Notes: a model not told the origin generated them from the sequence alone. Positions 35,805 through 63,945 are shown, numbered from the stretch's first letter. The stretch: 64,000 nt of DNA from an uncultured delta proteobacterium (GCA_963737265.1 CAVTRY010000008.1:1446-65445); one strand, 5' to 3'. Numbers and translations are program-made.

Positions 35805-36698
35805 ATGCGAACAGTCTCCATAGCCGTTCTCCTCCTTCTTGTAGGAGGTTCCGCATTCGCGGGCACACCGGACACCATCGCCATCGCGGTCGATACCGGA
35901 ACCCTGAACCCGAAGATCGCCGCGGACATTCGAGACGGCATTGCCGCCCAGGTCCTGGCCGGCCTGCGGGAGAATAAGATCGATCTCGTGCCGTTCACCG
36001 ACGCCGACGTTCTTGGCGAAGCCGTCGACTGCGCGGGGCCACCTTGCCTTGAGGGAATCGCGCGGCTTTCGCACCTAGCCCTGATAGCCCAGGTGCAGCT
36101 TCGCGCGAAAAAATCTGAACGGAAGGGAAAGCTGGACTACACCGTCGCGATCCTGGCTGCCCGCGCTGTCCCCGAATCCCAGTCATGGCGCGATACGAGC
36201 GCCTGTCCTGGCTGCGATCCCGAAGGCGTGAAAGACGTGGTCTTCCTTCTTGCCTCGACCCTCGGCGAACGCATCGCCGCCGAGATCCGCAAGCCAGCCC
36301 CAGCCCCAGCGCCAGCCCTAGCGCGACCGGTTGCGACCGTGCGCCCAACCCCACCGCCAGCCACCATCGCGATGCCACCGCTACCAGCGCGCGAGCCCGA
36401 CTGGTTCGTGCCGCGGTATTTGTCGGTCGGCGTGCTGGTGGGTGGGGCGGTGGTGGCGGGGACGGGCGTTTATCTGCTGCATCTGAATGGGAAAGGAACG
36501 TGCGACCTGGCGACGCCCAAGAAGCTCTGCACGCGAAGCTACGACACAAAAGCCATCGGCGCGGGTCTGCTGGTCGGTGGCGGATTGGCACTGCTAGGCG
36601 GCGTTGCTGGCCTAGTTTTTTATGGTCCCAATACCGACGGCTCGCACCTGGCCCTAACCTTCACCGGATCGTCAATTTCGGTTTCTGGAGGATTCTGA
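35805..36698 (+). CDS. cassette 1 protein A: signal peptide, globular domain, Pro-rich linker, two Gly-rich TM segments
   Basis: 297 aa beginning MRTVSIAVLLLLVGGSAFAG. Contains ..AVDCAGPPCL.., a PAPAPAP linker, and TM segments LSVGVLVGGAVVAGTGVYLL and IGAGLLVGGGLALLGGVAGLVF. Paralogues at 42813, 49872 and 57925. Confidence 0.7.
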   Translation: MRTVSIAVLLLLVGGSAFAGTPDTIAIAVDTGTLNPKIAADIRDGIAAQVLAGLRENKIDLVPFTDADVLGEAVDCAGPPCLEGIARLSHLALIAQVQLRAKKSERKGKLDYTVAILAARAVPESQSWRDTSACPGCDPEGVKDVVFLLASTLGERIAAEIRKPAPAPAPALARPVATVRPTPPPATIAMPPLPAREPDWFVPRYLSVGVLVGGAVVAGTGVYLLHLNGKGTCDLATPKKLCTRSYDTKAIGAGLLVGGGLALLGGVAGLVFYGPNTDGSHLALTFTGSSISVSGGF

Positions 36699-38716: not shown

Positions 38717-38738
38717 TCTTCAAGCAAACGGGATCCCC

Positions 38739-39851
38739 ATGGGCAAAGTCTTCATCAACGGTCGTCTCGCCGTCTGGGAAAACGGCCCCGGCATCTCCAT
38801 CGCCTTCCCCGACGTGTGCCTGTGCCCGCCCGGTCCGCCCGCGGGTCCCGTCCCCGTGCCGCTCACCAACACCGTCACCGCCCAAGATCTCGTCAACTGC
38901 GCCGCCACCGTCTTCATCGACGGCCAACCCGTCGCCCACCGCGATTCCTACTTCGCCAAGTCCACCGGCAACGAGGTATCCCGCAACACCGGCGGCGGCA
39001 TCACCAGCCACGCCGTGCAAGGCAAGGCCTACTTCGGCAGCTACTCACCCAACGTCCTCATCGAAGGCAAGCCAGCCGTCCGCCACCTCGACCTCGTGAC
39101 CCACAACCACCTCGACCCCATGCCCACCAACTGCCCGCCCGCCGTATGGGTCTCCGAAGCCAGCCCCGACCTGCCGCCACCAATCCCCAAGAACAAGACC
39201 AACGTTCTTCAGGAAGGCACGGACTGGATCGAGATCTCCTTGGTGGACGAAGCCGACGAGCCCATCCCGTACACGCCGTTTCGCTTCAAGACACCAAAGC
39301 AAGCCTTGGTCGAGGGCCGTTTCCTGTGGGGCGGGAAGCTGACCATTCGCAAAATGGCCCAGGGACGGTGCGAGCTGGTTCTGCCGGAAGTCGATGCCAT
39401 AGCCAACCCAGCCAATCCAAACTCGTCCGCCCGCGCCCCGGCGAACACGATTCGCTATCGTCCGGGGCAGCCGCTCTTGCTGGTGTCGGGAAAAGGCTAC
39501 CGTGTGTTCGTTGCGCAAATGCGAACGCTGTTCGTTGAGTTGCCCCTTCCCCAATCGGCAGCCAAAGCCGACCGCTACACCTTGCGAAGCGATGACGGTA
39601 CGTACGGCGTGTCCAAGACTGTCGCCGACGATCTGGTGAAGGAAGACGACATCCTGACCCTGGCGTTCCCGAAAGTGATCGCAGGGCCGAAGTACGCCCT
39701 GGCCCACGACGACTGCGCCGGACACTCTCACGACATCTTCGCCGGGTTGACCTTCGACAACCTGTTCCCGAAAGAACCGTGCTCGCCTTATGACGAGCCG
39801 GTGGCGGCCACCGATCTACGATTTGGCGTTGGGCAGCGCAGAAACGGATAG
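38739..39851 (+). CDS. cassette 1 protein C: PAAR-like DUF4150 protein with C-terminal extension
   Basis: ..FPDVCLCPPGPPAGPVPVPLTN...VFIDGQPVAHRDSYFAKSTGNEVS..GGGITSHAVQGKAYFGSYSPNVLIEGKPAVRHLDLVTHNH.. matches the DUF4150 (PAAR-like) consensus. 370 aa. Confidence 0.85.
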   Translation: MGKVFINGRLAVWENGPGISIAFPDVCLCPPGPPAGPVPVPLTNTVTAQDLVNCAATVFIDGQPVAHRDSYFAKSTGNEVSRNTGGGITSHAVQGKAYFGSYSPNVLIEGKPAVRHLDLVTHNHLDPMPTNCPPAVWVSEASPDLPPPIPKNKTNVLQEGTDWIEISLVDEADEPIPYTPFRFKTPKQALVEGRFLWGGKLTIRKMAQGRCELVLPEVDAIANPANPNSSARAPANTIRYRPGQPLLLVSGKGYRVFVAQMRTLFVELPLPQSAAKADRYTLRSDDGTYGVSKTVADDLVKEDDILTLAFPKVIAGPKYALAHDDCAGHSHDIFAGLTFDNLFPKEPCSPYDEPVAATDLRFGVGQRRNG

Positions 39852-39855: not shown

Positions 39856-41874
39856 ATGGCCAGGCACAAGATCGACTTCGAGGAAGAAGACCTCAAGCCC
39901 AACTGGCGCTACGAGGTCAAGCCCCGGCTTTACACGCCACCAGGCCAGAACCCGCCGCCGCTGGCGAACAAGAACGGCCCAACACGGGCGGTGGTTCGCG
40001 TAGCGCCAGCGGATCGGCGGCTGGACAACGAGACCCCTGCCGATCCGCAGTCTCCCGACATCACCGGTAGATACCAAAGCGATGGCGCCAAGGAGGCGTC
40101 AGGCAAGCCCGCCTTCCTTCTGCACGTGAACCAGGCCGGCAAGCACGTCGAGGCCTTGCTGGTGCGGCTGCCGCACGGACATCAGCATGGCTCGATCGCG
40201 CAGCAGCGGTTCTATGCGGATCTGAAGGGTGATGGCGTGTTCGCCGCGAGCACGCCCACCGTAGCCGAGGGAGCCACGGTCGAGGGTGTGTCCGGCGAGA
40301 TTCGCCAGCAGGGCGAGGAATTGATCGTCAACCTGCCGGTCTGGGATGGCCTGGACGGGACCACGTTTTATCTGCGCGACAAGCGCGCGACCTTTCTCGA
40401 TCAATCGTTGGATTCCTTGATCGAAGCCGAAGGCGCGGTGGTGGGACAGGATCCGGAGATCAAGGCCCTGGTCGAGAGCATCGAGAACCTGCCGCTTTCG
40501 GATGCCCAACGATCTCGTCTGCGCCAGGTCTTCACACCCGAGATACTCGATCCATTGCTTAAAGATTGCTTCGGCCACGGCTCGAAAGACGACGACATCA
40601 GAAGATCCGCGGTCGTTGGCTCGGCCGAGCAGTTGGACATTTACCTTGGCAAGGCGTTCGACCAGTCAAGCTGGTCACACCAGCAATGGCCGCAGGTGCT
40701 TCAATACGTGCGCACCGTCCTGACGATGCAAACGGTGGTCATCAACGACAGTCGACGCTCCGAGTTAGATTGGATCGAGGCGGTTGCCGCCGAGGCCATT
40801 CCCGATGCCGACTATTTGGTTCATCCGACGGCCACCAACCCAGACAAGGGCCAACCAACAGAGTTACCCAACTTGCGACGCTTGCTGGGGGTGACAGAGC
40901 AATCCGGATACAATGTTGTCCACAAGTACGAGGTGACGGTCGACTTAAAAGCCCACGACACCTCGCCCAAGAGATTCGGTCTGGCACCGTTTCACCTGCG
41001 AGCATACGAGGGAGCCATCAAGATCACCCAGCTCCGCTCGTCCGCCGATGAGGGCTGGCTTTACAGCTACAAGATGATCCTCGTGGGTGGTGCAGCGATA
41101 TTGGGCAAAGGTGGTGCCGAGGACTTGAACGCAAGTGGTTCGTTCAAGTCGAGCACCAACTGGACACCCGCCGACTTTCCGGGGTGGGTGCTTCTTCATG
41201 ACGGCGGGGCCTGGGCTGGAAAGAAACCGCCGAGCGCGAAGGAGACTCTTGGTGTCGGCCACCGAGAAGCGGTCCTGGTCCTGAAAGGCCGGGGCAACCA
41301 TCGCGAGCAACTGTTTCCGCTCAAAGGCGCTGATGCGCTCCGGGATGGGCTCGGTGGTGAGTACTCGTTCACGTGGGGAAGAATCTATGACTTGGATACG
41401 GACCTGTCCGAAATCGACTATAGCCGTCCGATGAAGCACTCGGAACGAGTTGTGACGACGCGAACAGAGGACAACGTCCACTTCGAGTTCGGAAGCGCTC
41501 TGCTCAAAGGCGCCGGGCGATATCAGGTGCGGGTATTGTGCGCAATCTGGTTGCGCTGGTTGGAATCCGCGAGAAGTACCCTTCACATCGTTGGCCACGC
41601 CGACACGGTGGATACGAAACAGCACAACGACGAGCTTTCTCTCATGCGCGCCACGAACGTCGTCCGAGCAATCAAGGGCATTCTCGGCCCCAAGCTCGGA
41701 ATCCCGGATGATGCCATCACGTTCTTTGGTCGAGGGAAACAAGAAGCCGACGAGGACAAATCGGCCAGGGAAAGGGCTGTCGGGCACCGGCTTCGGGATA
41801 CGCCCGACGTTCGATTCCGAAAAGTCGAGATCGAGCTGAATGGGCAATGCGTGCTGGTTCTGTGGGGTGCTTGA
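39856..41874 (+). CDS. cassette 1 protein D: large protein without signal peptide, C-terminal OmpA-like peptidoglycan-binding domain (candidate effector)
   Basis: 672 aa. The C-terminus ..LHIVGHADTVDTKQHNDELSLMRATNVVRAI..FFGRGKQE.. fits OmpA_C (GH.D..G....N..LS..RA..V). It starts 4 nt after the C1 stop. Confidence 0.65.
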   Translation: MARHKIDFEEEDLKPNWRYEVKPRLYTPPGQNPPPLANKNGPTRAVVRVAPADRRLDNETPADPQSPDITGRYQSDGAKEASGKPAFLLHVNQAGKHVEALLVRLPHGHQHGSIAQQRFYADLKGDGVFAASTPTVAEGATVEGVSGEIRQQGEELIVNLPVWDGLDGTTFYLRDKRATFLDQSLDSLIEAEGAVVGQDPEIKALVESIENLPLSDAQRSRLRQVFTPEILDPLLKDCFGHGSKDDDIRRSAVVGSAEQLDIYLGKAFDQSSWSHQQWPQVLQYVRTVLTMQTVVINDSRRSELDWIEAVAAEAIPDADYLVHPTATNPDKGQPTELPNLRRLLGVTEQSGYNVVHKYEVTVDLKAHDTSPKRFGLAPFHLRAYEGAIKITQLRSSADEGWLYSYKMILVGGAAILGKGGAEDLNASGSFKSSTNWTPADFPGWVLLHDGGAWAGKKPPSAKETLGVGHREAVLVLKGRGNHREQLFPLKGADALRDGLGGEYSFTWGRIYDLDTDLSEIDYSRPMKHSERVVTTRTEDNVHFEFGSALLKGAGRYQVRVLCAIWLRWLESARSTLHIVGHADTVDTKQHNDELSLMRATNVVRAIKGILGPKLGIPDDAITFFGRGKQEADEDKSARERAVGHRLRDTPDVRFRKVEIELNGQCVLVLWGA

Positions 41875-42467
41875 TGCGCCGAAGGGCGACGTGCTTCATG
41901 GTCGGGCTCGCCTTCAGTGCAGCGAGTGCTTGCCACAAGAAGACGCCCGAGGGCCTCCCCTTCGCGTACGTCGAGGCCATCTCGGCGATGGCCGACGAGG
42001 CCGTGAAACATTGTGATCGCCTGCTGCACGAGAAGGTTTGCTATGACGTTCTCGGCGACGAGAGAAATCCCAATGCCGATGCTATGGAGGGCGCTCCCCG
42101 CGTCCCCCTCCCTGACAATCCGTTGGGCGGGGCCGCCGAGCTACGCCTGCTTATGGCAAGCTGCGCCTCGACCCACGAACACGACAATCCTCGTCTTTGG
42201 TGCAACGCCAGGAGCCTCGTCAAGACGCGACTCCCGCTGGAGTGCATCGAATTCAGGCTATTCGGTTCGTGGCCTGCGGTGAATCCCCAGGAGAACGAGG
42301 GCATGAGCGTGTCGGTGGCGGCCAACCCGGCATGCAAGGCTCCGTGGGTCGAAGTTGCGGCGGTCCGAAAGACGCCCGGCGGAGACTGGTTCTCGCTCAA
42401 CGCCTACTTCCTACCGAAAAAGTGGCTCGACAAGCATCCAGAGGACGCCAAGGATGCAAAGAAGTAG
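41874..42467 (+). CDS. cassette 1 protein E: small Cys-containing lipoprotein (candidate immunity protein)
   Basis: 197 aa with lipobox GLAFSAASAC. The start overlaps the D1 stop (TGATG). Paralogue at 48908-49486 with a diverged middle and an identical 3' end. Confidence 0.6.
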   Translation: MRRRATCFMVGLAFSAASACHKKTPEGLPFAYVEAISAMADEAVKHCDRLLHEKVCYDVLGDERNPNADAMEGAPRVPLPDNPLGGAAELRLLMASCASTHEHDNPRLWCNARSLVKTRLPLECIEFRLFGSWPAVNPQENEGMSVSVAANPACKAPWVEVAAVRKTPGGDWFSLNAYFLPKKWLDKHPEDAKDAKK

Positions 42468-42535
42468 CGGCACCAGAACAGGCTCGGCGCAAAAAAGCGG
42501 CCTTTTTCGCCGGGGGACCCCTTCGCGATGCTGGA

Positions 42536-42625
42536 AGCGCTTGCCCGAACGCCGGGTAAGGTCCGCAGCCCAACGAATCTGCACGCCGGGCGGCCGGGTG
42601 ACCTTTTCCGCCGACCGGCGGGTGC
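42536..42625. repeat. 42-bp tandem repeat (~1.5 copies) containing palindrome ACCCGGC-G-GCCGGGT variants
   Basis: ..GCCCGAACGCCGGGTAAGGTCCGCAGCCCAACGAATCTGC ACGCCGGGCGGCCGGGTGACC... Followed by a ~190-bp block that is conserved upstream of A2, A3 and A4. Confidence 0.7.
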
Positions 42626-42812
42626 GCCTTGGGCGTCCGGTCAGGCGTTCGGCGTCACGGGTTGGTTCGAGCGAGCGAGTGCGTGCCTATCTTCCGGGTC
42701 GGGGTTAGCATGTCGCGGCTAATAGCTACGTGGATCCGCGGCCCGCGTGTCAAACCGGGCTTCGGTTTCAGCCACCGACCAAATCGACGAATATCCCACA
42801 GAGCCGACCACC

Positions 42813-43721
42813 ATGAGACTACCCGCAGCCTTGCTCTTCCTCATCGCCAGTCATCCCGGTCATCCCGCCAACGCCGGCGTGCCCAACGCCGTGGCCATCG
42901 CGGTGGACACCACCGGCCTCGGCCAGAAAATCGCGGCGCCGGTGCGGGATGGCATCGCGGCCCAGGTCTTGGATGGCCTTCGCGCTGCCAACATCGATTT
43001 CATCCCCACCGAGGAAACGAAGATCGTTGCGCGGATAGTGGATTGCGCTGGACTCGAGTGCCTTCGCAATATCGCCAAGTCCGAGAACCTGGATTGGGTG
43101 GTGCAAGTTCGGGTGCGGGCCAGGGAAGCGACCAAGAAGGGCAAGACCGACTACGTGGTCTCGATCGCCGTGGTCCGCGATGCGCCCGATCGCGGTGCAT
43201 GGCACGAGGAAGCCGACTGCCCCGGTTGCGAGGGCGGCGAGATCGAGCACATGGCTTCACTGATGGCGGGGGAGATCGCTGGACACATTAAGGTCGATGC
43301 TCCGCCAGCCAGCACCGCGCCCGCGCCGGCAAAGGCGCCTTCCGTGGTGGCAACGCAGCCGGCACCGTTGCAAGCACCGCCGCCGCCAGCGACCTTCGTA
43401 AAGCCACCGCTACCAGCGCCGGAGCCTGCCTGGTACGTGCCGCGGTATTGGTGGGTGGGTACGCTCGCGGGCGGGGCGGTGTTGGCGGGGGCGGGTGTTT
43501 ATCTGCTGCACATCGACGGGCGAGGCACCTGCGACTTGGCCGCGCCGAACCAACAATGCGCGGAGAGGTACAAGACGCAGGGCCTTGGCATCGGCATGGT
43601 GGCCGGTGGTGGTTTGGCATTGCTCGGCGGACTTGCGGGGCTGACCCTTTTCGCACCTCCCGCGGGCAGCACGGGCATTGGATTCGATGGCTCTTCAATC
43701 TCGATCTCGGGGGAATTCTGA
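42813..43721 (+). CDS. cassette 2 protein A
   Basis: 302 aa from MRLPAALLFLIASHPG... Near-identical to A3 and A4, and the same architecture as A1. Confidence 0.7.
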   Translation: MRLPAALLFLIASHPGHPANAGVPNAVAIAVDTTGLGQKIAAPVRDGIAAQVLDGLRAANIDFIPTEETKIVARIVDCAGLECLRNIAKSENLDWVVQVRVRAREATKKGKTDYVVSIAVVRDAPDRGAWHEEADCPGCEGGEIEHMASLMAGEIAGHIKVDAPPASTAPAPAKAPSVVATQPAPLQAPPPPATFVKPPLPAPEPAWYVPRYWWVGTLAGGAVLAGAGVYLLHIDGRGTCDLAAPNQQCAERYKTQGLGIGMVAGGGLALLGGLAGLTLFAPPAGSTGIGFDGSSISISGEF

Positions 43722-48908: not shown

Positions 48909-49486
48909 TGCGTGGAAGGAACGCGTGTCTCATCGTCGGGCTCGCCTTCAGTTCAGCGAGTGGTTGCCACAAGAAGACGCCAGCAGGAATTTCCTTCGCC
49001 TATGTCGACGCCGTCTCCGCGTTGGCCGATCAGACGGCAAAATACTGCGATCATCTTTTGCGCGAGAGTGCTTGCTACAGCGCCTTGAGCATAAATCCCG
49101 ACAATGAACACCGACTGGCCGTTCCTTTGCCTGACAATCCGCTGGGTGGCATCCCCGAGCTGCGCCAACTGAAAGCAAAATGCGATTCCGCCGACGAGCA
49201 CAACAACCACCAACTCTGGTGCGACGCCAAGAGCGTAGTCAAAACCCGACTTCCAAGAGAATGTGAAATGTTTAGCCTCTTCGGCTCTTGGCCAGTGGTC
49301 AACCGGCTAGAGAAGGAAGGCGTCACCGTGTCAGTGGTGGACGACCCGGCATGCAAGGCTCCGTGGGTCGAGGTTGCGGCGGTCCGAAAAACGCCCGGCG
49401 GAGACTGGTTCTCGCTCAACGCCTACTTCCTACCGAAAAAGTGGCTCGATGAGCATCCAGAGGACGCCAAGGATGCAAAGAAGTAG
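48908..49486 (+). CDS. cassette 2 protein E (small lipoprotein, candidate immunity)
   Basis: Lipobox GLAFSSASGC. TGATG overlap with D2. About half of its residues are identical to E1, and the last ~45 aa are identical. Confidence 0.6.
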   Translation: MRGRNACLIVGLAFSSASGCHKKTPAGISFAYVDAVSALADQTAKYCDHLLRESACYSALSINPDNEHRLAVPLPDNPLGGIPELRQLKAKCDSADEHNNHQLWCDAKSVVKTRLPRECEMFSLFGSWPVVNRLEKEGVTVSVVDDPACKAPWVEVAAVRKTPGGDWFSLNAYFLPKKWLDEHPEDAKDAKK

Positions 49487-54047: not shown

Positions 54048-56362
54048 GCCCGATTCCAGCCCGTGCCGAGGTTGGCATCAACTTCGTGCGGTGGGATGCG
54101 CGCTTCCTCTTCTATCGCGATCTGCCGCGACCAGCGGGTAGCCCCGGCGACAGGGTGACCACGCCGGTCAAGAACTGCTGGCTCTACATCTTCGACCCAT
54201 TCGGACCATTGCTGTTCGAGGTCTATGCCGATGCCGATGGCCTGTATCACGAGGTCGATACGACGAAGCACGCCGGCAAGGACATCAGACCGTTCGCGCT
54301 GGAAGGCCAGGCGGTGCGCCCCACCCTGCCGCTGCTGGCTGGCCAGCGGACGTCCAAGGGGACGATCCCCATCTTCCACTGGATCTTGCCGTCGCCGTTT
54401 CAATTGCCGTGGTCACGCTTCCCGCACCTCACGCACCTGGAAACAAACAACGACGGCCCGCGTGGCGATTTCAGAAAATGGGCCGAGGGCACCCGCCAGC
54501 TATCTCACTTCGTGCCGAGGTTTCAAGAAGACACAGGGAACCCGTTGCCCGAAACGGCGGTTCCTTCCCCGTGGCTGCATGCCCAGGCCCTCGGCCGATG
54601 CTTCCAAATCGCGCAAGAGCGGTGGCTGTCGGGCTTTCTCGACGACACCGCCCGCATGGAACGCAAGACCCTGCGCTCGTACGTGCGATCCATCGAATCG
54701 ATCGTGGGCAAAGAGCGCTTCGAGCGCGACATGCTGGATCTCATCGACAAGCTCGCCTTCGAGACCGAGGAGAGGCACGACAAGGAGCAAGAGGAGTTTC
54801 CGCCTACCGAGCTGGTCGGGGCGCGCACCGCGCTGATCGGCTACCTGAAAAGCCCACGCTATCTGGCCATGCGCGACGATGCCCTGGCGTCGCCCGACCC
54901 GCGCGCCCTGGCGACTTTCGCCGAGATCCAGGCCACGGCGGAATCGGGCCTGGAAGGCGTGGCCGGCGATCCTGCTTACCGCGCGTCCGTGTTGCGCGAC
55001 AACCCCAAGCTTTTCAAGAAAGAGGCCGAGGAGGTATCGACCGAGGTTAAGTCCTTCATCGAGGCCCACCCGGAAGCCATGTACGACCAGCCCGCGAGCC
55101 TCGGCTGGAAGGAACAGCGCAAGGCCCTCAAATCGTACTGGTACCTGGTCAAGGCGTATATCGCACAGATCGAATGGATCGCGCCGCGCAGGTTGACGAG
55201 GGATCTCAAGACCTTTGGCCGCGAGCTGTTTGGCGTGCTGGTGGAGTTCGATTTGGCCGAAGGGACGGCGGCTCGGCGGATGCCCGACGGAACCATCAAG
55301 TGGCCACGCCTCGTGGTCAGCCCACAGACCAAGGCCCGTCTGTCCGATAGGTATTCGAACAACCTGGAATGGAACACCTTCTTCGTCGTGCTCGATGCCT
55401 ACAACCTCATCATGGCCTGCCAGGAACAAGCCAAAGGCAAGACCGACATGAAGACCGTGGTGAGCGCCATGGGCGCTTTCCTGAACACCGTGGCCGCCGC
55501 CGTCGAGGCGACATTACAGCGGCAAGGAGCGAAGCACCTGATCGTCACCGACAAGATGATCGCCGAGCTGGCCGAGGGCGCGGGCAAAACCAGCGCGAGG
55601 AAAGGATCGGGAAGCTTCGCGGTCACGCTGCGGAAGTTTAACCAGCCGAAGACGATTGGAGCGATGGGGAAGTTGTTGGGGGCACTGGGGTCTGCCTTCG
55701 AGGCTTGGAGCCAAATTCAGCAGGCGAAAGGGGCGGATTCCGAATTGGACCCAGATGTGGCCCTGGCACATCGAGTTTCGGCAGGGGCGAATATTGCAGT
55801 GACAGCAGGCTATTTCATCGGATTTTTCGGGACCGTGTGTGGAATCGCGGTAGGTACAGCCGTCGCCTGGCCGCTGGCCTTGGTGGCAATTGGCTCGTGG
55901 CTGGTTCTCGGCGGGACGGTCACGGATTTGGGGGCAAAGCTGGTCTTGCTGCATCTGAAGAAGGATCCGCTGGAGAATTGGTTGAAGGTCACGCCATGGG
56001 CGCGTGGGGCAAGATTCCGGATTGAAAGCTTCGACGAACAGGTTAAGGCCTTTCATAGGGCGCTGGTAGGACTGCATGTGAACATCCGCCCCGGCCTCAC
56101 CGGCTTCGACGTGACAGTCGAATCACGAGTTGTCCAGTCCCCCGCCCAGGTCTATCTCGAGCTCGAATGGCTGGGCGAAGCCGGTCCTGAGCCGTTGAAG
56201 AACGCTATGGCACCCATGACAGCAGCGGAATACCTGAGTCCAAGCCAATTCAGACATACCGAGTTCGCTTCGCCCGTGAGGACCGTGACAGCCCGCGTGC
56301 GCCTGCTCCTGGATGGCGAGTGGTATCCGGAGGAGCCGGCGGTGTTCAACTACCCGGAGTAG
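54044..56362 (+). CDS. cassette 3 protein D': unrelated large protein with C-terminal Gly/Ala-rich TM helix cluster (candidate membrane-active toxin, possibly VasX-like)
   Basis: 772 aa with an ATGA overlap with C'. N-terminal ..NCWLYIFDPFGPLLFEVYADADGLYHEV... C-terminal hydrophobic cluster ..ANIAVTAGYFIGFFGTVCGIAVGTAVAWPLALVAIGSWLVLGG... No OmpA-like domain. Confidence 0.5.
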   Translation: MSPIPARAEVGINFVRWDARFLFYRDLPRPAGSPGDRVTTPVKNCWLYIFDPFGPLLFEVYADADGLYHEVDTTKHAGKDIRPFALEGQAVRPTLPLLAGQRTSKGTIPIFHWILPSPFQLPWSRFPHLTHLETNNDGPRGDFRKWAEGTRQLSHFVPRFQEDTGNPLPETAVPSPWLHAQALGRCFQIAQERWLSGFLDDTARMERKTLRSYVRSIESIVGKERFERDMLDLIDKLAFETEERHDKEQEEFPPTELVGARTALIGYLKSPRYLAMRDDALASPDPRALATFAEIQATAESGLEGVAGDPAYRASVLRDNPKLFKKEAEEVSTEVKSFIEAHPEAMYDQPASLGWKEQRKALKSYWYLVKAYIAQIEWIAPRRLTRDLKTFGRELFGVLVEFDLAEGTAARRMPDGTIKWPRLVVSPQTKARLSDRYSNNLEWNTFFVVLDAYNLIMACQEQAKGKTDMKTVVSAMGAFLNTVAAAVEATLQRQGAKHLIVTDKMIAELAEGAGKTSARKGSGSFAVTLRKFNQPKTIGAMGKLLGALGSAFEAWSQIQQAKGADSELDPDVALAHRVSAGANIAVTAGYFIGFFGTVCGIAVGTAVAWPLALVAIGSWLVLGGTVTDLGAKLVLLHLKKDPLENWLKVTPWARGARFRIESFDEQVKAFHRALVGLHVNIRPGLTGFDVTVESRVVQSPAQVYLELEWLGEAGPEPLKNAMAPMTAAEYLSPSQFRHTEFASPVRTVTARVRLLLDGEWYPEEPAVFNYPE

Positions 56363-57341
56363 ACACCTTGCCCTTTGGTGGGGCCAGGTATTTGCGCAGG
56401 AAACCGGCGAGCAGATTCGCGGTCCCGCAGATTGGGGAACAGGAGAAAACCCCCTGAACAATGACCAATTCTCCCGCATCACCATCGCCAACGACCCTGA
56501 CCGCACCCTCGTGAGCGTCGAAGGTGCGTACGGTCCCCCGGTGCCGAAGGAAGACTTCCCTCTTTCCTTTCCGAAAGGTAGCCACGCTGGCACGCCGGCC
56601 GTCATAGACAATCCAGCACGGGCCTAGCGTGCTCAGAATGGCGGCCGCCACGGCTATGACCGTTGCGTACGTTGGAAGAAAAACAAATGGGAAGAAGGCT
56701 ATCCCCGGCGCTGTCAGCATGGCTACCCCCACGCCCACGACCCATTGGCGCGCACTGCCGAAGTTGGCGATGGAGACGCTGTTCTCGTCGTACCCGACAA
56801 CATCGGCTCCGGATTCGGCCAACAAGGGAAGAAAACTTCTTTCGGAATCCTCGCCCAGCGACGCTCCTAAAAAGCGTTCGAGGATCGCCGAGGCTTCGAC
56901 CCGTTCGACCTCGTCTGAGGTCACACGTGCGGGAACAGACGCAGTCGGGAAATCCCAGTCCGCTGGGGAGCAGCCATGTGGAAGTTCGATGGTCCACTGA
57001 CCATCCCCCAGATCTATGAACATGCTTCTGGTTCCGCGTTTCAGCACGAGAAAACGCCGACCACGATCGGCTAGCCAAATGAGGAAGAACGTCGGGAACG
57101 CCCCAAGTAGGAGCCAAGGAATCGAAGGCCCGAGCTTGGAATCCACCCATCTGGCAATCACCAAAAAGAGCGCAAGGAGAAACCAGAACATCGTAAACCA
57201 CGCCGCCTTGGCGATGGCGGGAGCCGTCAAGGGAAACACAATCTCGTCGTCGCTGATCTTCTTGATGCGGTAGCAGCGGCGCAAAAGCGCCTTCTCGTCT
57301 TCCGTGAGATGAGCCGCTGGTGTTTGTGCCCCGTCTGACAT
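56346..57341 (-). CDS. multi-pass membrane protein (candidate immunity protein for D')
   Basis: 331 aa with several TM helices (WFTMFWFLLALFLVIA; WLLLGAFPTFFLIWL; VGVGVAMLTAPGIAFFPFVFL; TVIAVAAAILSTL). Convergent with D', overlapping it by 17 nt. Confidence 0.55.
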   Translation of the reverse strand: MSDGAQTPAAHLTEDEKALLRRCYRIKKISDDEIVFPLTAPAIAKAAWFTMFWFLLALFLVIARWVDSKLGPSIPWLLLGAFPTFFLIWLADRGRRFLVLKRGTRSMFIDLGDGQWTIELPHGCSPADWDFPTASVPARVTSDEVERVEASAILERFLGASLGEDSERSFLPLLAESGADVVGYDENSVSIANFGSARQWVVGVGVAMLTAPGIAFFPFVFLPTYATVIAVAAAILSTLGPCWIVYDGRRASVATFRKGKREVFLRHRGTVRTFDAHEGAVRVVGDGDAGELVIVQGVFSCSPICGTANLLAGFLRKYLAPPKGKVSTPGS

Positions 57342-57483
57342 GGCTGCTGCGCCCCAGGCCGGATTTTGCGCACGATTCGCGATGGAGACAAGACAATCCC
57401 CCGCAACGAGAATTCACCGACCGGCGCGAGCCAGCGCCGGTCCCAAGCCACGAGACGAAGTGAGTCGGGATGCGGATCCGGGT

Positions 57484-57735
57484 GTCACACGCCGGCCGTG
57501 TAGGCCCCGCAGCTCAGCGGAAGGGCTCACCCGGCGGCCGGGTAAGGTCCGCAGCTCAGCGGAGGCGCTCACCCGGCGGCTGGGTAAGGTACGCAGCTGG
57601 GCGGATCTGCTTACCCGACGGCCGGGTAAGCTCCGCAGCTCAGCGGATCCGCTCATCCGCCGGCCGGGTAGGGTCCGCAGCCCAACGGATCTGCTTACAA
57701 GGCGGCCGGGTGACCTTTTCCGCCGACCGGCGGGT
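57484..57735. repeat. 42-bp tandem repeat (~5.5 copies)
   Basis: Units such as CTCACCCGGCGGCCGGGTAAGGTCCGCAGCTCAGCGGAGGCG, each carrying ACCCGGC-G-GCCGGGT or a close variant. The 57340-57834 ORF with RRPGKVRSSAE repeats is its translation. Confidence 0.85.
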
Positions 57736-57924
57736 GCGTCTTGGGCCGCCGGTCAAGCGCTCGGCGTCACGGGTTGGTTCGAGCGAGCGAGTGCGTGCCT
57801 ATCTCCCGCGTCGGGGTTAGCATGTCGCGGCTAAGATATACGTGAACCCGCGGCCCGCGCGCCGAGGTGGGCTTCGGTTTCAGCCACCGACCAAATCGAC
57901 GAATATCCCACAGAGCCGACCACC

Positions 57925-58833
57925 ATGAGACTACCCGCAGCCTTGCTCTTCCTCATCGCCAGTCATCCCGGTCATCCCGCCAACGCCGGCGTGCCCAACG
58001 CCGTGGCCATCGCGGTGGACACCACCGGCCTCGGCCAGAAAATCGCGGCGCCGGTGCGGGATGGCATCGCGGCCCAGGTCTTGGATGGCCTTCGCGCTGC
58101 CAACATCGATTTCATCCCCACCGAGGAAACGAAGATCGTTGCGCGGATAGTGGATTGCGCTGGGATCGAGTGCCTTCGCAATATCGCCAAGTCCGCCAAC
58201 CTGGATTGGGTGGTGCAAGTTCGGGTGCGGGCCAGAGAAGCAACCAAGAAGGGCAAGTCTGACTACGTGGTCTCGATCGCCGTGGTAGGCGATGCGCCCG
58301 ATCGCGGTGCATGGCACGAGGAAGCCGACTGCCCCGGTTGCGAGGGCGGCGAGATCGAGCACATGGCTTCACTGATGGCGGGGGAGATCGCTGGACACAT
58401 TAAGGTCGATGCTCCGCCAGCCAGCACCGCGCCCGCGCCGGCAAAGGCGCCTTCCGTGGTGGCAACGCAGCCGGCACCGTTGCAAGCACCGCCGCCGCCA
58501 GCGACCTTCGTAAAGCCACCGCTACCAGCGCCGGAGCCTGCCTGGTACGTGCCGCAGTATTGGTGGGTGGGTACGCTCGCGGGCGGGGCGGTGTTGGCGG
58601 GGGCGGGTGTTTATCTGCTGCACATCGACGGGCGAGGCACCTGCGACTTGGCCGCGCCGAACCAACAATGCGCGGAGAAGTACAAGACGCAGGGCCTTGG
58701 CATCGGCATGGTGGCCGGTGGTGGTTTGGCATTGCTCGGCGGACTTGCGGGGCTGACCCTTTTCGCACCTCCCGCGGGCAGCACGGGCATTGGATTCGAT
58801 GGCTCTTCAATCTCGATCTCGGGGGAATTCTGA
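57925..58833 (+). CDS. cassette 4 protein A
   Basis: 302 aa, near-identical to A2 and A3. Confidence 0.7.
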   Translation: MRLPAALLFLIASHPGHPANAGVPNAVAIAVDTTGLGQKIAAPVRDGIAAQVLDGLRAANIDFIPTEETKIVARIVDCAGIECLRNIAKSANLDWVVQVRVRAREATKKGKSDYVVSIAVVGDAPDRGAWHEEADCPGCEGGEIEHMASLMAGEIAGHIKVDAPPASTAPAPAKAPSVVATQPAPLQAPPPPATFVKPPLPAPEPAWYVPQYWWVGTLAGGAVLAGAGVYLLHIDGRGTCDLAAPNQQCAEKYKTQGLGIGMVAGGGLALLGGLAGLTLFAPPAGSTGIGFDGSSISISGEF

Positions 58834-60862
58834 TGTGGTCACAAAGCGCAACACGCGGACTTCTTCTGGTGGCAATGCTGACAGCGGGTTGCACGGAGCG
58901 GAATCCCGACTACTGCGCCAAGAACAGCGATTGCAGCGGTCATCGCATCTGCGATGTCGTTCGAGCAACCTGCGTGTCGCCGACGCCGCCGTTGCGCCGG
59001 TGGTCGACGCGGGCGTCGCCGACGTGGCCGCGGATACTGCCGTGGACTCGCCGGTAGTGGTCGACGGCGGCGGATCTCCTGTCGACGGCGGCGGATCTCC
59101 TGTCGACGCATCGACGCCGGTGGAGGTCGCGCAGACCAGCGAGGCTGGGCGCCCAGTCGATGGTCGCGTGGCTGATGCTGCCTTGCCGGACGTTTACGTT
59201 CCGGATGGACGGGGAACCTGCGGGGTGAACGGCGACTGCACCGATCCGACGAAGGTGTTTTGCGTGGCGGGCGTGTGCGTGGGATGCCAGGGAGCGGGCG
59301 CGACTGCGTGCGGGGCGCAGGCGTGCGATACGGTTTCGGGGAAATGCGTGGAATGCGTCGCCGATACTGGCTGCACGAAAGATCCGGCAAAGGGTTTCTG
59401 CGTGCTGAATGCTTGCACGGCTTGCAGTACCACGGGGGCAACCGGCTGCGCCCTGCGTTCGGACGGGAGGACGGCTTGCGCACCTAGCGGAGCCTCGGCC
59501 GGTCAGTGCGTGGAATGCATCGCGGATGCCGGCTGCACGAAAGACCCGGCGAAGGCATTCTGCGTGGCCAACGCCTGCACGGGCTGCGGTACCAGCGGGG
59601 CGACCGGCTGTGCCGCGCGCACGGATGGGAAGACGTCCTGTGCGGCTAGCGGAGCCTCCGCGGGCCAGTGCGTGGAGTGTCTCGCCGACACGGGCTGCAC
59701 GAAAGACCCGACGAAGGGCTTCTGCGTGGCCAACGCCTGCACCGGCTGCAACACGCCCGGCGCGACGAGCTGTACCGGGCGAACCGACGGCAAGCTCGTC
59801 TGCTCAACCAGCGGAACGGCCGCTGGTCAATGCGTGGAATGCTCCGGAGACAGCCAGTGCACCTCCAGTGTGGCCAAGGGCTTCTGCGTGGCGAACGCCT
59901 GCACCGGTTGCAACACCCCAGGCGCGACAGGCTGTGCGGCGCGGACCGACGGCAAGGCCGTCTGTGCCGCCGCCGGGACCTTGGCCGGGCAATGCGTGGC
60001 CTGCGCATCCAGCGGCGATTGCAAGGTCGCGACGAGCCCAATCTGCACTGCCGTCAACGTCTGCGTCGCCTGCACGGCGGACAGCCAGTGCGTGGCAAAG
60101 CTCGGCGCGACAGGAAACCCGGGCGTGTGCATGAGCAACCTCGACGGCCATTGCGCGACCGATGCGGAGACGGTCTACGTGCAAAACGTGACCGGGTGTT
60201 CGAATAGCCTGACCAGCGGGACTGCGGCGGCGCCCTTCTGCGATGCCACGATCGGCGTGAACGCAGCCGTGAGCACCAACGGAAAGATCCTGGCCGTACT
60301 GGCCGGGGCCTTGAGCAGTTTCTCGGTATCGGCACCGGCGAAGCCACTCACCATCGTCGGAAAGGCCGCGACGGTAACCCCGGCTGCCTTCAGCGACGGC
60401 ATCGACGTCACGGCCGGCGAGGTGTACCTGCGTGGCATCACGGTGCAAGGAAGCCCGAGCGCGGGAACCAAGATCGGCATCAACGCCGGCACCGGCGTCA
60501 CCCTGCACATGGACACCTGCTCCATCGTCGGCAACCCCGGCGGAGGCATCCTGCTCAACGGCGCCGCCTTCGACATCGAGAACACGACCGTCACAGGGAA
60601 TGGGCCGGGGACGTTTAGTGGACTTCCATGGGGTGGTGTCCTTATACAAAACATTCCCGCAAGCGGCCCGACGACGCTCAACCTGGTGACGGTTCAGAAC
60701 AATAATGGCGGCGGTGTAGCCTGCTCCGGTGCCATCACCGGCACCGGTGTCTTGGCCACAGGGAATACCAATACCGTGAGCCAAATCGGCGCAACCTGCG
60801 GCTTCACCTCCTGCTCCACCTCCGCCGCCAGCTCCACCTGCGGCGCGCAGAGCACCCCCTGA
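58833..60862 (+). pseudogene. cassette 4 protein B, frameshifted after ~49 codons
   Basis: The signal/lipobox exon frame (58833-59057) and the body frame (58790-60862) differ by one base. TGCGTGTCGCC-GACGCC at 58971-58986 lacks one C compared with B2 and B3 (TGCGTGTCGCCCGACGCC). Confidence 0.75.
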
Positions 60863-60878: not shown

Positions 60879-61991
60879 ATGGGCAAGGTCTTTATCAACG
60901 GTCGCCTCGCCGTCTGGAAAAACGGCCCCGGCATGTCCATCGCCTTCCCCGACGTGTGCCTGTGCCCGCCAGGTCCACCCGCGGGTCCTGTCCCCGTTCC
61001 GCTCACCAACACCGTCACCGCCCAAGATCTCGTCAACTGCGCCGCCACCGTCTTCGTCTACGGCCAGCCCGTCGCCCACCGCGATTCCTACTTCGCCAAG
61101 TCCACCGGCAACGAGGTATCCCGCAACACCGGCGGCGGCATCACCAGCCACGCCGTGCAAGGCAAAGCCTACTTCGGCAGCTACTCACCCAACGTCCTCA
61201 TCGAAGGCAAGCCAGCCGTCCGCCACCTCGACCTCGTCACCCACAACCACCTCGACCCGATGCCCACCAACTGCCCGCCCGCCGTCTGGGTCTCCGAAGC
61301 CAGCCCCGACCTGCCGCCGCCAATCCCCAAGAACAAGACCAACGTTCTTCAGGAAGGCACGGACTGGATCGAGATCTCCTTGGTGGACGAAGCCGACGAA
61401 CCCATCCCGTACACGCCGTTTCGCTTCAAGACACCAAGGCAAGCCTTGGTCGAGGGCCGTTTCCTGTGGGGAGGGAAGCTGACCATTCGCAAAATGGCCC
61501 AGGGACGGTGCGAGCTGGTTCTGCCGGAAGTCGATGCTATAGCCAACCCAGCCAATCCAAACTCGTCCGCCCGCGCCCCGGCGAACACGATTCGCTATCG
61601 TCCGGGGCAGCCGCTCTTGCTCGTGTCGGGGAAAAGCTACCGTGTGTTCGTCGCGCAAATGCGAACGCTGTTTGTCGAGCTGCCCCTTCCCCCATCGGCG
61701 TCGAAAGCCGACCGCTACACCTTGCGAAGCGATGACGGCACGTACGGCGTGTCCAAGACCGTCGCCAACGATCTGGTGAAGGAAGACGACATCCTGACCC
61801 TGGCGTTCCCGAAAGTGATCGCAGGGCCGAAGTACGCCCTGGCCCACGACGACTGCGCCGGACACTCTCATGACATCTTCGCCGGGTTGACCTTCGACGA
61901 GCTGTTCCCGAAAGAACCGTGCTCGCCTTATGACGAGCCGGTGGCGGCCACCGATCTACGATTTGGCGTTGGGCACCGCAGAAACGGATAG
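60879..61991 (+). CDS. cassette 4 protein C (PAAR-like DUF4150)
   Basis: 370 aa, a few substitutions away from C1 and C2. Confidence 0.85.
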   Translation: MGKVFINGRLAVWKNGPGMSIAFPDVCLCPPGPPAGPVPVPLTNTVTAQDLVNCAATVFVYGQPVAHRDSYFAKSTGNEVSRNTGGGITSHAVQGKAYFGSYSPNVLIEGKPAVRHLDLVTHNHLDPMPTNCPPAVWVSEASPDLPPPIPKNKTNVLQEGTDWIEISLVDEADEPIPYTPFRFKTPRQALVEGRFLWGGKLTIRKMAQGRCELVLPEVDAIANPANPNSSARAPANTIRYRPGQPLLLVSGKSYRVFVAQMRTLFVELPLPPSASKADRYTLRSDDGTYGVSKTVANDLVKEDDILTLAFPKVIAGPKYALAHDDCAGHSHDIFAGLTFDELFPKEPCSPYDEPVAATDLRFGVGHRRNG

Positions 61992-61995
61992 GACC

Positions 61996-63945
61996 ATGGC
62001 CAGGCACAAGATCGACTTCGAGGAAGAAGACCCCAAGCCCAACTGGCGCTACGAGGTCAAGCCCCGGCTTTACACGCCACCTGGCCAGAAGCCGCCGCCG
62101 CTGGCCAACAAGAACGGCCCGACGCGGGCCGTGGTTCGCGTAGCGCCCGCGGATCGGCGGCTGGACAACGAGACCCCTGCCGATCCGCAGTCTCCCGACA
62201 TCACCGGTAGATACCAGAGCGAGGGCGCCAAGGAGGCGTCAGGCAAGCCCGCCTTCCTTCTGCACGTGAACCAGGCCGGCAAGCACGTCGAGGCCTTGCT
62301 GGTGCGGCTGCCGCACGGACATCAGCATGGCTCGATCGCGCAGCAGCGGTTCTATGCGGACCTGAAGGGGGACGGCGTGTTCGCCGCGAGCACGCCCACC
62401 GTAGCCGAGGGAGCCACGGTCGAGGGTGTGTCCGGCGAGCTTCGCCAGCAGGGCGAGGAATTGATCGTCAACTTGCCGGTCTGGGATGGCCTGGACGGGA
62501 CCACTTTTCATCTGCGCGACAAGCGCGCGACCTTTCTCGATCAATCGTTGGATTTCTTGATCGAAGCACAGGACGCCATTGTCGGCGCGAACGAGGCCAT
62601 TAGGAAACTGATCGAAAGCACGGAAGAGCAGCCTCTTTCCGATGCCCAAAGAAGCCGTCTGCGCCAGGTGTTCGCCCCGGAGGAGATCAACCCTCTTCTC
62701 AAGGCCTACTACGACTCCAGCTCGGCCGATAGATCGAGCGCTCTGGCCGACCGTCTGAGGCTGGCGGAGAGGCTGGACGGCTATGTTCGGGATGCACTCG
62801 ACCAGTCGAGGTGGGCCGCACAGCAAGAGCCGCAGGTCCTCGAATACGTCCGAACCATCTTGGCCACTCAGCGTGCCGACATGAACCAGAGCCGGCGCTC
62901 CGAACTGGAGTGGATCGAAGCCATCGTCGCGGACTCTTTCGATACCAAGAAAGCGCTGGTGACGGGATACGACGGCGTTTTCGACTGGAGCAAATTTCTG
63001 CCAAACTTGCGTCGCCTGCTGGGCACCTCGGAGCCCCTCAGAGATGGTGCTGTTCGCGAGTATCGAGTCGTGGTCGACCTGAAAGCCCACGATACCTCGC
63101 CCAAGAAATTCGGTCTGGCGCCGTTTCACCTGCGAGCATATGAGGGAACCATCGATATCACCCAGCTCCCATCGTCCGCCGACAAGGGCTGGTTTCACCG
63201 CTATAAGATAATCCTCGTGGGTGGTGCTGCGATTTTGGGCAAGGGCGGCGCGGAAGCCGTCGAGGCAAAAGGTTCGTTCAAGTCGAGCACCAACTGGACT
63301 CCCGCCGACTTTCCAGGGTGGGTGCTTCTTCATGATGGCGGGGCCTGGGCCGGAAAGAAACCGCCCAACGCGAAAGGGACTCTTGGTGTCGGCCACCGAG
63401 AGGTGGTCCTGGTTCTGAAAGGCCGGGGCAACCATCGCGAGCAACTGTTTCCACTCGAAGGTGCTGATGCGCTTCGTGAAGGAATTGGTACCGAGTACTC
63501 GTTCACGTGGGGAAGAATCTACGACCTGGACACGGACCTGTCCGAAATCGACTACAGCCGTCCGATGAAGCACTCGGAACGAGTTGTGACGACGCGAACA
63601 GGGGACAACGTGCACTTCGAGTTCGGGAGCGCCCTGCTCAAAGGCGCCGGGCGATATCAGGTGCGGGTATTGTGCGCGATTTGGTTGCGCTGGTTGGAAT
63701 CCGCGAGAAGCACCCTTCGCATCGTTGGCCACGCCGACACGGTGGATACGAAACGGCGCAACGACGAGCTTTCTCTCATGCGCGCCACGAATGTCGTCCG
63801 GGCGATCGAGGGCATTCTTGGCCCCAAGCTCGCAATTCCGGATATCAAGCCCCTGGGGCTAGGGAAACAAGAAGCCGACGAGGACAAAGCAGCCAGGGAA
63901 AGGGGTTCATCGCGCGTTCGGGTGATTGCGAAGGCAACGGCGTAG
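61996..63945 (+). CDS. cassette 4 protein D, mosaic and 3'-truncated variant
   Basis: The N-terminal ~200 aa match D1 and D2, and aa ~205-400 are strongly diverged. The OmpA-like region is present, but similarity stops at ..EDKAARER| (about nt 63904) and is replaced by GSSRVRVIAKATA*. No E gene follows. Confidence 0.6.
   Translation: MARHKIDFEEEDPKPNWRYEVKPRLYTPPGQKPPPLANKNGPTRAVVRVAPADRRLDNETPADPQSPDITGRYQSEGAKEASGKPAFLLHVNQAGKHVEALLVRLPHGHQHGSIAQQRFYADLKGDGVFAASTPTVAEGATVEGVSGELRQQGEELIVNLPVWDGLDGTTFHLRDKRATFLDQSLDFLIEAQDAIVGANEAIRKLIESTEEQPLSDAQRSRLRQVFAPEEINPLLKAYYDSSSADRSSALADRLRLAERLDGYVRDALDQSRWAAQQEPQVLEYVRTILATQRADMNQSRRSELEWIEAIVADSFDTKKALVTGYDGVFDWSKFLPNLRRLLGTSEPLRDGAVREYRVVVDLKAHDTSPKKFGLAPFHLRAYEGTIDITQLPSSADKGWFHRYKIILVGGAAILGKGGAEAVEAKGSFKSSTNWTPADFPGWVLLHDGGAWAGKKPPNAKGTLGVGHREVVLVLKGRGNHREQLFPLEGADALREGIGTEYSFTWGRIYDLDTDLSEIDYSRPMKHSERVVTTRTGDNVHFEFGSALLKGAGRYQVRVLCAIWLRWLESARSTLRIVGHADTVDTKRRNDELSLMRATNVVRAIEGILGPKLAIPDIKPLGLGKQEADEDKAARERGSSRVRVIAKATA

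Follow-up and report, generated by a model that had tools for sequence, protein, structure and literature searches.

Why would a PAAR-like gene be preceded, four times in a row, by genes for a membrane protein and a large cysteine-rich lipoprotein? The question is raised by a 64,000-nt stretch of DNA from an uncultured delta proteobacterium (GCA_963737265.1, CAVTRY010000008.1:1446-65445; "the window"), in which an initial annotation recognised four tandem cassettes, each with genes for an envelope protein (A), a lipoprotein (B), a DUF4150 PAAR-like protein (C), a protein with no signal peptide (D), and a small lipoprotein (E). The initial annotation offered two readings: an array of type VI secretion system (T6SS) cargo effectors and immunity proteins, with A and B as accessory or self-protection components, or an envelope-anchored system that has co-opted a PAAR-like fold. 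Our analysis indicates that the region is probably an island of T6SS auxiliary effectors, of the DUF2169/DUF4150 ("PIPY", Tvp) type, in a Myxococcota-like genome, and that A and B are most likely passengers co-amplified within it. The part of the first reading that makes C a carrier, D an effector, and E an immunity protein is supported by adjoining chaperone genes, by a vgrG gene in a relative, by the family match of one D protein, by the joint travelling of C, D, and E, and by polymorphism of D and E; the part that gives A and B an accessory role is not supported by co-occurrence.

T6SS chaperone genes adjoin the cassettes, and vgrG heads the same gene order in a relative

Open reading frames (ORFs) were called afresh on the window and translated. 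Two to four kilobases upstream of the array, on the strand of A1, lie three T6SS chaperone genes that the initial annotation had overlooked (Table 1): up1, for a putative HEAT-repeat protein; a DUF2169 gene, 6 kb upstream of C1 and on the same strand, with a true start probably near 31670; and up3, for a thiolase-like PRK06147 protein. The matches of up1 and up3 fall below family cutoffs: for up1, HEAT_2 scores 22.5 bits vs. a Pfam cutoff of 27.7, and for up3, the match to NF004798 covers 311 of 341 residues and scores 117 bits vs. an NCBIfam equivalog cutoff of 342. Homologues of up1 precede DUF2169 in the related loci L006 (83% identity) and L013 (31% identity), and a protein of up1-like size directly follows vgrG in the metagenomic relative JGI 3300075153. 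According to Sachar et al. (2025; PMC11883445), DUF2169 genes are strictly found together with VgrG-DUF4150 spikes; their "synteny type A" comprises DUF6484, DUF2169, thiolase-like, and armadillo-like genes (PMC11883445), the last of which up1 would fit; and Tvp class II comprises DUF2169 (TvpA) and PRK06147 (TvpD) (Monlezun et al., 2026; PMC13373197).

The order of genes in JGI 3300075153 is VgrG (with Phage_GPD, Phage_base_V, and Gp5_trimer_C domains), a 557-residue protein, DUF2169, a 339-residue protein, kinase, A-like, B-like, Tox-PAAR-like, and D1-like. Because VgrG stands ahead of the other genes there, at least one relative has the whole arrangement as a vgrG island. Since chaperone genes lie upstream of the cassettes, and since vgrG precedes the same gene order in this relative, sequence comparison supports putative roles for C as spike-tip carrier, for D as cargo, and for E, or for the membrane protein I3 that takes its place in cassette 3, as immunity protein.

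The same observations bear on the second of the initial readings, a T6SS-independent, envelope-anchored system built on a PAAR-like fold. It can appeal to the lack of a vgrG, hcp, or sheath gene in the window, where, as had been claimed, no large ORF has a VgrG, Hcp, or sheath domain, and to the fact that A, B, and E are envelope proteins. It is opposed by the adjoining DUF2169 and thiolase-like genes, by the strict co-occurrence of DUF2169 with VgrG-DUF4150 spikes (PMC11883445), by the vgrG gene that heads the equivalent locus in JGI 3300075153, by the sub-cutoff match of D3 to a T6SS effector family, and by the lack of signal peptides in C and D. We consider a T6SS-independent system hardly conceivable.

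The four cassettes share constant flanks and differ in cargo

Self-BLASTN of the window resolves four tandem units at about 35805-42467, 42813-49486, 49872-57341, and 57925-63945, where they had initially been placed, with unit-to-unit nucleotide identities of 90-96% over 2.4-5.9 kb. Cassette 1 aligns with cassette 2 at 90.4% identity across 36749-42563, and cassettes 2, 3, and 4 align with one another at 94-96% from about 42551, 49611, and 57663. All four cassettes have in common the DNA between the start of B and roughly residue 145 of C, and the breakpoints of the repeats fall at 36749, at about 39178/53269, and at 42551/49611/57663. The couplings that had been described can all be read in the sequence: A and B, and likewise D and E, overlap as TGATG, and C and D are 4 nt apart. 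B and C are separated by 22 nt, a spacing with which they are probably co-transcribed.

The uniformity initially ascribed to the cassettes is in part lost on closer comparison. The gene order A-B-C-D-E holds for cassettes 1 and 2; cassette 3 has another C tail, the unrelated D3, and, on the opposite strand where E would be, I3; and cassette 4 has a frameshifted B4, a shortened D4, and no E within the 55 nt that remain in the window. Cassette 4 had been said to extend beyond 63945, but homology of D4 is lost near 63905, a stop codon follows at 63945, and the last 55 nt hold no E. Exact-sequence look-ups with A4, C4, and D4, aimed at DNA past the end of the window, gave no match. Nor are A and B invariant, as had been stated: A1 is only 48% identical to A2-A4, and the B copies are 86-93% identical to one another.

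Each spacer between cassettes contains a 42-nt tandem repeat, with a consensus of about GACGGCCGGGTAAGGTCCGCAGCTCAGCGGATCTGCTCACCC, at 42551-42600 (about 1 copy), 49565-49661 (2.3 copies), and 57485-57711 (5.4 copies); an ORF-like reading at 57340-57834, in the last spacer, is probably spurious. Judged from the breakpoints, the array would have grown by unequal recombination, with A-B and the 42-nt-repeat spacers as tracts of homology, and the unit exchanged would be the C tail, D, and the immunity gene, between a constant left flank (A-B and the PIPY-coding part of C) and a constant right flank (the spacer with its 42-nt repeats).

Table 1. Features of the effector island, in order along the window (TM, transmembrane; AF2, AlphaFold2; TRF, Tandem Repeats Finder).
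Feature	Coordinates	Strand	Basis
up1, 571-aa HEAT/armadillo-like repeat protein, first of T6SS accessory set	29957..31672	+	HEAT_2 E = 1.4e-4
DUF2169 (TvpA-type) chaperone for DUF4150/PIPY spike tips	31465..32727	+	PF09937 E = 2.7e-73; role from PMC11883445, PMC13373197
up3, thiolase-like PRK06147 protein, TvpD-like predicted PAAR chaperone	32727..33752	+	NF004798 E = 8.1e-34
Receptor-type Ser/Thr kinase: kinase domain, TM helix aa 468-486, TPR tail outside membrane	33810..35795	+	Pkinase E = 7e-50 and TPR; hydropathy
A1: signal peptide, PelC/LptE-like periplasmic domain, Pro-rich linker, two TM helices	35805..36698	+	AF2 model, Foldseek
B1: lipoprotein, six 54-aa 8-Cys repeats, C-terminal beta-helix	36698..38716	+	sequence, 162-nt tandem period
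C1: DUF4150/PIPY spike-tip domain (aa 1 to ~145), D1-type C-terminal extension	38739..39851	+	PF13665 E = 1.6e-28
D1: putative cargo effector; beta-sandwich, helical region, beta-barrel, OmpA-like domain	39856..41874	+	PF00691, AF2, Foldseek, profile search
E1: lipoprotein, putative D1 immunity	41874..42467	+	lipobox SAASAC; overlaps D stop codon
Inter-cassette spacer 1, conserved	42468..42812	.	one 42-nt unit; alignment of three junctions, TRF
A2: A2-type paralogue, 48% identical to A1	42813..43721	+	sequence comparison, tree
B2	43721..45763	+	sequence, self-BLASTN
C2: 97% identical to C1	45779..46891	+	identity comparison
D2: D1-type, variable block aa 330-470	46896..48908	+	identity, sliding comparison
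E2: lipoprotein, 69% identical to E1	48908..49486	+	lipobox, identity comparison
Inter-cassette spacer 2	49487..49871	.	2.3 copies of 42-nt repeat; junction alignment, TRF
A3	49872..50780	+	sequence, identity comparison
B3	50780..52807	+	sequence, identity comparison
C3: PIPY domain of C1, different C-terminal extension	52830..54047	+	PF13665 E = 2.5e-28, sliding identity
D3: BTH_I2691/Tke5/VasX-like membrane-targeting effector (putative)	54044..56362	+	NF041559 E = 7.1e-17, TM helices 584-616
I3: 331 aa, about 4 TM helices, putative D3 immunity; convergent, overlaps D3 end	56346..57341	-	sequence, hydropathy
Inter-cassette spacer 3	57342..57924	.	5.4 copies of 42-nt repeat; junction alignment, TRF
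A4	57925..58833	+	sequence, identity comparison
B4: 1-nt deletion in CCC run near 58981, frameshift	58833..60862	+	sequence
C4: C1-type	60879..61991	+	identity comparison
D4: D1-type, variable block aa 170-350; OmpA domain cut, homology ends near 63905	61996..63945	+	alignment

Tandem copies of such similarity invite the suspicion that the copy number, if not the array itself, is an artefact, fewer cassettes having been expanded or chimerised by the assembler. The source is apparently a metagenome-derived contig of 70,819 nt, the frameshift in B4, which marks either a pseudogene or a homopolymer sequencing error, is of a kind typical of long reads, and a short-read assembly with an identical A1 protein (L012, a 3.1-kb contig) breaks exactly at the start of the repeat. 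An artefact of this kind is nevertheless very unlikely: the copies differ in 4-10% of nucleotides, D and E contain mosaic blocks peculiar to each copy, A1 is distinct from A2, the cargo of cassette 3 is another one, the spacers differ in number of 42-nt units, and two relatives independently show at least two cassettes each. In the close relative L006, the order is minus-strand kinase, up1, DUF2169, up3, kinase, A, B, C3-type, D3-type, and I3, and a further ORF (17810-18526 of that locus) fuses residues 1-162 of A2 to residues 593-672, the last 80, of D1 and is followed by an intact E homologue; it is a clean deletion remnant of a second cassette, with the orphan immunity gene kept. In L007, where the contig end leaves only the tail of a kinase gene, this tail is followed by A, B, C3-type, D3-type, I3, and a further A. 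The multi-cassette state is older than this genome. By copy divergence, mosaics, spacer counts, and these two relatives, we take the array to be real, its exact copy number being provisional.

Near-identical PIPY domains carry divergent tails

The assignment of C to DUF4150 was borne out: C matches PF13665 (Tox-PAAR-like) at 99 bits vs. a cutoff of 31. C1-C4 share the motif P39-V-P-L42 where the published motif is P(I/V)P(Y/F), with both prolines kept and leucine in place of the aromatic residue. C1 and C3 are about 100% identical over residues 1-145 and 10-40% identical thereafter, and C3 is 88% identical to the single C of L006. Since the PIPY domains (residues 1 to about 145) of C1-C4 are essentially identical, all four could cap one VgrG spike; and since the C-terminal extension changes with the downstream cargo, the C tail is probably a cargo-specific adaptor that recruits D. 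By analogy with the known families, the one chaperone set (HEAT/armadillo-like, DUF2169, and thiolase-like PRK06147) would serve carriers C1-C4, and DUF2169 and its partners would keep the PIPY domain competent to cap VgrG.

Two classes of putative cargo are paired with two classes of immunity candidate

The initial description of D, no signal peptide and an OmpA-like C-terminus, fits D1; it fails for D3, which is unrelated and has no OmpA domain, and for D4, in which that domain is cut. D1 has neither a signal peptide nor a transmembrane segment, and its OmpA domain (residues 543-640) matches PF00691 at 32.1 bits vs. a cutoff of 27.2, with YiaD, OprF, Pal, and TagL as top Foldseek matches to the fold. 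An AF2 model (pLDDT 61) has eight long strands besides a beta-sandwich, a helical region, and the OmpA-like domain, the only one of these that Foldseek recognises; a possible FABP/lipocalin fold for the central barrel was rejected, the resemblance being too weak to use. D1, D2, and D4 are identical over residues 1-165 and 87-100% identical over residues 480-600, and vary in central blocks.

D1 is rare by direct search (11 clusters), and a profile search with the D1 body found 471 relatives among 1.84 billion representatives. Many of these are longer proteins that lack a signal peptide and carry the D1 body at the C-terminus, with Peptidase_S8 (subtilase), trypsin-like, or Peptidase_M15 domains in the N-terminal part, and one has two copies of eCIS_core, a domain that marks cargo of contractile injection. 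Among the longer relatives, VgrG or PAAR fusions of the D1 body were expected, but proteases, M15 peptidases, and eCIS_core were seen instead. The domain fusions support, but do not prove, injection of the D1 body as a module that targets peptidoglycan. We propose that D1, D2, and D4 probably act in the periplasm of the target cell and are neutralised by lipoprotein E; E homologues follow D homologues in loci L013-L016.

D3 (772 residues) is 22% identical to D1 and has C-terminal transmembrane helices. Residues 448-675 match NF041559, the BTH_I2691 family, at 61 bits vs. a cutoff of 150, with only the C-terminal 200 positions of the model matched; the N-terminus has no MIX domain and no Pfam match even at E values up to 5. 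In two reports, members of the BTH_I2691 family such as Tke5 and VasX are described as pore-forming, membrane-depolarising toxins (PMC12909789, PMC13133200). D3 may likewise be a membrane-depolarising toxin acting on the inner membrane, probably neutralised by I3, homologues of which adjoin D3 homologues in L006 and L007. The putative effector-immunity pairs, D with E and D3 with I3, are supported by gene position, coupling, predicted cell compartment, and co-variation. The claim that every E is a lipoprotein stands for E1 and E2, which have lipoboxes, and fails for cassette 3, where the four-helix I3 on the minus strand occupies the position, and for cassette 4, which has no E in the window.

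A and B form an envelope pair that occurs apart from the T6SS cassettes

The architectures initially proposed for A and B were confirmed. The signal peptide of A ends in a site of the signal peptidase I type (AFA|G), and A lacks a lipobox; the rest of the protein comprises a folded domain, a linker rich in Pro, and two hydrophobic helices rich in Gly, as seen in sequence, hydropathy, and AF2 model. Residues 22-165 of A1 are modelled at pLDDT 82-94, and they have Foldseek matches to PelC and LptE (E about 2e-4, TM-score about 0.5), a modelled resemblance of fold only. B has a lipobox, six repeats of about 54 residues with 8 Cys each, visible in the DNA as a 162-nt period, and a beta-helix tail. 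The B family, with more than 177 relatives carrying PF27011 (DUF8331) and PF13229 (Beta_helix), is much larger than that of A, which is rare (15 clusters among 5.8 billion proteins). No Pfam or NCBIfam match was obtained for A, B, E, or I3, at relaxed thresholds either, and a Protein Data Bank (PDB) sequence search with B gave no match. In a neighbour-joining tree, A1-type and A2-type proteins lie on deep, separate branches; the two types are therefore old paralogues and not recent duplicates.

The C-terminus of every A homologue is formed by a conserved GSSISVSGGF-like motif, the last residue of which is aromatic (in the window, for example, at 36660-36695). The motif resembles the beta-signal of outer-membrane proteins, which is odd beside two predicted helical transmembrane segments; AF2 confidence is low at this end of the protein.

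The initial annotation had A and B ahead of the PAAR-like gene in every case. This is true of the window's clade; elsewhere, the pair and the carrier-cargo-immunity unit are found apart. A-B occurs without C-D-E in at least 10 loci (L001, L003, L008, L010, L011, L019, L020, L021, L024, L026, L029), and a scan with a seven-sequence A alignment gave at least two loci. In loci with a distant A (38-48% identity), A is always directly followed by B, and none of C, D, E, or DUF2169 is present in the flanks. Conversely, C-D-E occurs without A-B in four loci: in L013/L014, from a Polyangia metagenome-assembled genome, directly after up1-like, DUF2169, and thiolase-like genes and with no kinase, A, or B, and in L015/L016 alone. 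The initial annotation had considered that homologues of A and B might be envelope proteins with no linkage to DUF4150 or T6SS genes; in distant relatives this is essentially what is found, whereas in the window's clade the linkage is kept. We conclude that A-B and C-D-E can be separated as modules. The window's clade alone has the two joined, with a block of kinase, A, and B between the chaperone genes and C.

In six to eight of the stand-alone A-B loci the neighbours are common (aldolase, pfk, a gene for a 204-residue protein, A, B, and a convergent gene for a protein of about 460 residues), which implies that the stand-alone A-B locus is an orthologous locus of the core genome. The pair is conserved in Polyangia-type Myxococcota, and the family is uncharacterised. 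On this sequence evidence, A-B in the island are most likely paralogues of a tightly coupled envelope pair, one that normally occupies a conserved chromosomal locus by itself, and most likely came along with the rest when the cassettes were amplified.

Two neighbours of the stand-alone pair recur. A protein of about 450 residues, with no Pfam match on record, is encoded convergently after B in eight loci (L001, at 13011-14351, L010, L011, L020, L021, L024, L026, and L029), and the 204-residue protein is encoded divergently before A in seven stand-alone A-B loci. Either could be a functional partner of A-B.

Several observations weigh against a T6SS effector island in which A-B are passengers. 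Against the assignment to T6SS, the window has no vgrG or T6SS core gene, and neither Foldseek nor a PDB sequence search, which gave only weak OmpA matches, recognised a toxic or enzyme fold in D1, for which the model is mediocre. Against the passenger status of A-B, the order kinase-A-B-C is kept across relatives in which A is 62-87% identical to A1, every A and B copy has a ratio of nonsynonymous to synonymous substitution rates of 0.25-0.46, indicating purifying selection, both old A paralogues are kept inside the island, and the 22-nt gap between B and C makes co-transcription likely.

The last four observations can equally be claimed for an account in which A, B, and possibly the upstream receptor kinase are real accessory parts of this clade's T6SS cassettes, with a role in envelope sensing, surface recognition, or self-protection. 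To them may be added that A-B heads every cassette, including those of the old two-cassette state of L006 and L007, that the kinase, conserved before A in L006, L007, L018, and JGI 3300075153, has a transmembrane helix, that its TPR domain lies outside the membrane, and that the arrangement recalls PpkA with TagQ and TagR (see below). Yet A-B is autonomous in at least 10 loci, most in a core-genome neighbourhood; C-D-E sits beside the same chaperone genes without A-B in L013/L014; the kinase was not duplicated along with the cassettes; the window ORFs searched encode neither an FHA nor a PppA partner; and tandem amplification copies anything that lies inside the unit. An accessory role for A-B is possible, though on balance unlikely. 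A more specific form of it is improbable. In this form, kinase-A-B would be a clade-specific envelope module built into the T6SS island; B would lie at the surface as a lipoprotein whose beta-helix varies, with A as its PelC/LptE-like partner, and the two would sense or bind neighbour cells and signal through the kinase, such that each cassette combines its own recognition proteins with its own toxin. A cassette coupled to recognition in this way would follow a logic like that of TagQR-PpkA or of TraA kin recognition. We therefore retain as the probable reading an effector island with A-B as passengers.

Defence and mobile elements occupy the DNA upstream of the island

The first 30 kb of the window contain mobile and defence elements, including a DUF1016 nuclease. 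At the start of the window, on the minus strand, are genes for an RCC1-repeat protein and a neprosin-domain protein (891-1844 and 2073-4103); an RCC1-type protein is also encoded downstream of the D1-like gene in JGI 3300075153. An array of clustered regularly interspaced short palindromic repeats (CRISPR) at 10754 to about 14860 has 58 copies of the 37-nt repeat GTTTCAATCCACGCGCGGGCCCGAGGGACCGCGCGAC, with spacers of about 33-36 nt, and a stretch of about 600 nt (6618-7213), 75-78% similar to the array, adjoins IS21-type genes. Beside the array, on the minus strand at 16368-23114, are type I-C-like cas genes: Cas4 (16368-16991), Cas7 (17042-17932), Csd1/Cas8c (17929-19878), and Cas3, with HD and helicase domains (20565-23114). 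Mobile elements at 4189-6533, 7541-9777, and 24731-26236 comprise an IS21-type pair (rve/Mu-C transposase and IstB), a second rve integrase with an AAA_22 ATPase, and an IS91/Y2 transposase; such elements, upstream of the island, may explain the absence here of vgrG before up1, a gene present in the relative. The chaperone genes lie between two genes, at 27576-29855 (minus strand) and 33810-35795, for Ser/Thr kinases that have TPR repeats at the C-terminus; both are kept in L006.

Comparison with known systems

The island provides a natural test of T6SS modularity, with identical domains for spike docking, swapped tails that probably bind cargo, and one chaperone set, and it would place the determinant of specificity at about residue 145 of C and in the first 165 or so residues of D. 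The D1 body represents an uncharacterised family of putative cargo with a peptidoglycan-binding domain; in some relatives, it is joined to a protease, an M15 peptidase, or an eCIS marker domain. Were A-B needed for the cassettes, they would point to a new coupling of the envelope to T6SS firing or immunity. Literature searches returned no description of this arrangement.

In the H1-T6SS of Pseudomonas aeruginosa, the kinase PpkA works with the lipoprotein TagQ and the periplasmic protein TagR, in the PpkA-TagQRST pathway of threonine phosphorylation. The window resembles that system in having a membrane-spanning Ser/Thr kinase beside a periplasmic or membrane protein and a lipoprotein in a T6SS locus. 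It differs in that nothing similar in sequence to TagQ or TagR was found, that the window ORFs searched have no FHA target, PppA phosphatase, or TagQ/R/S/T domain, and that A-B occurs elsewhere without any kinase or T6SS genes. Membership in a PpkA-TagQR system was rejected on these grounds, the partner genes being missing and A-B standing alone elsewhere.

PelC and LptE are periplasmic proteins associated with outer-membrane export machines, and A is like them in the predicted alpha/beta fold of its residues 22-165. A differs in not being a lipoprotein, in having a Pro-rich linker and two transmembrane helices, in lacking sequence similarity, and in having as partner a Cys-rich lipoprotein and not a barrel protein. 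With no lipobox and no sequence-family match, A was rejected as a member of the PelC/LptE family.

D3 is like BTH_I2691, Tke5, and VasX in its hydrophobic helices, in an adjacent multi-helix immunity candidate, and in a putative C-terminal membrane-active region with a partial match to NF041559. It differs in its sub-cutoff score (given above), in its lack of a MIX match, and in that it would be loaded through the tail of a separate PIPY protein.

Rhs and CdiA arrays combine a constant delivery part with a swappable toxin tip and an immunity gene, and include orphan modules. The window resembles such polymorphic toxin arrays in its constant 5' region, its variable toxin and immunity genes, its tandem copies, and its mosaic recombination, and the immunity remnant of L006 recalls their orphan copies. 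It differs in that carrier and toxin are separate proteins, and in that the constant region includes complete envelope genes, A and B, outside the delivery protein.

The closest counterparts are the DUF2169-DUF4150 PIPY clusters, "synteny type A" and Tvp class II. The window has their DUF2169 and PRK06147 genes and a putative armadillo/HEAT-like gene, it has a DUF4150 carrier followed by effector and immunity genes, and its relative has vgrG upstream. It differs in having no vgrG and no DUF6484 (TvpC), of which no match was found among up1, DUF2169, up3, and the kinase, which fill 29957-35795; in having the receptor kinase and A-B between the chaperone genes and the DUF4150 gene; in having four DUF4150 genes per chaperone set; and in having the motif PVPL where these clusters have P(I/V)P(Y/F). 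What is unusual is the combination of four cassettes with one chaperone set, a clade-specific kinase-A-B insertion, paralogues of an envelope pair amplified with each cassette, and an uncharacterised OmpA-domain cargo family. We conclude that, set beside these systems, the locus is an unusual variation on a known type of weapon locus; it does not amount to a system of a new kind.

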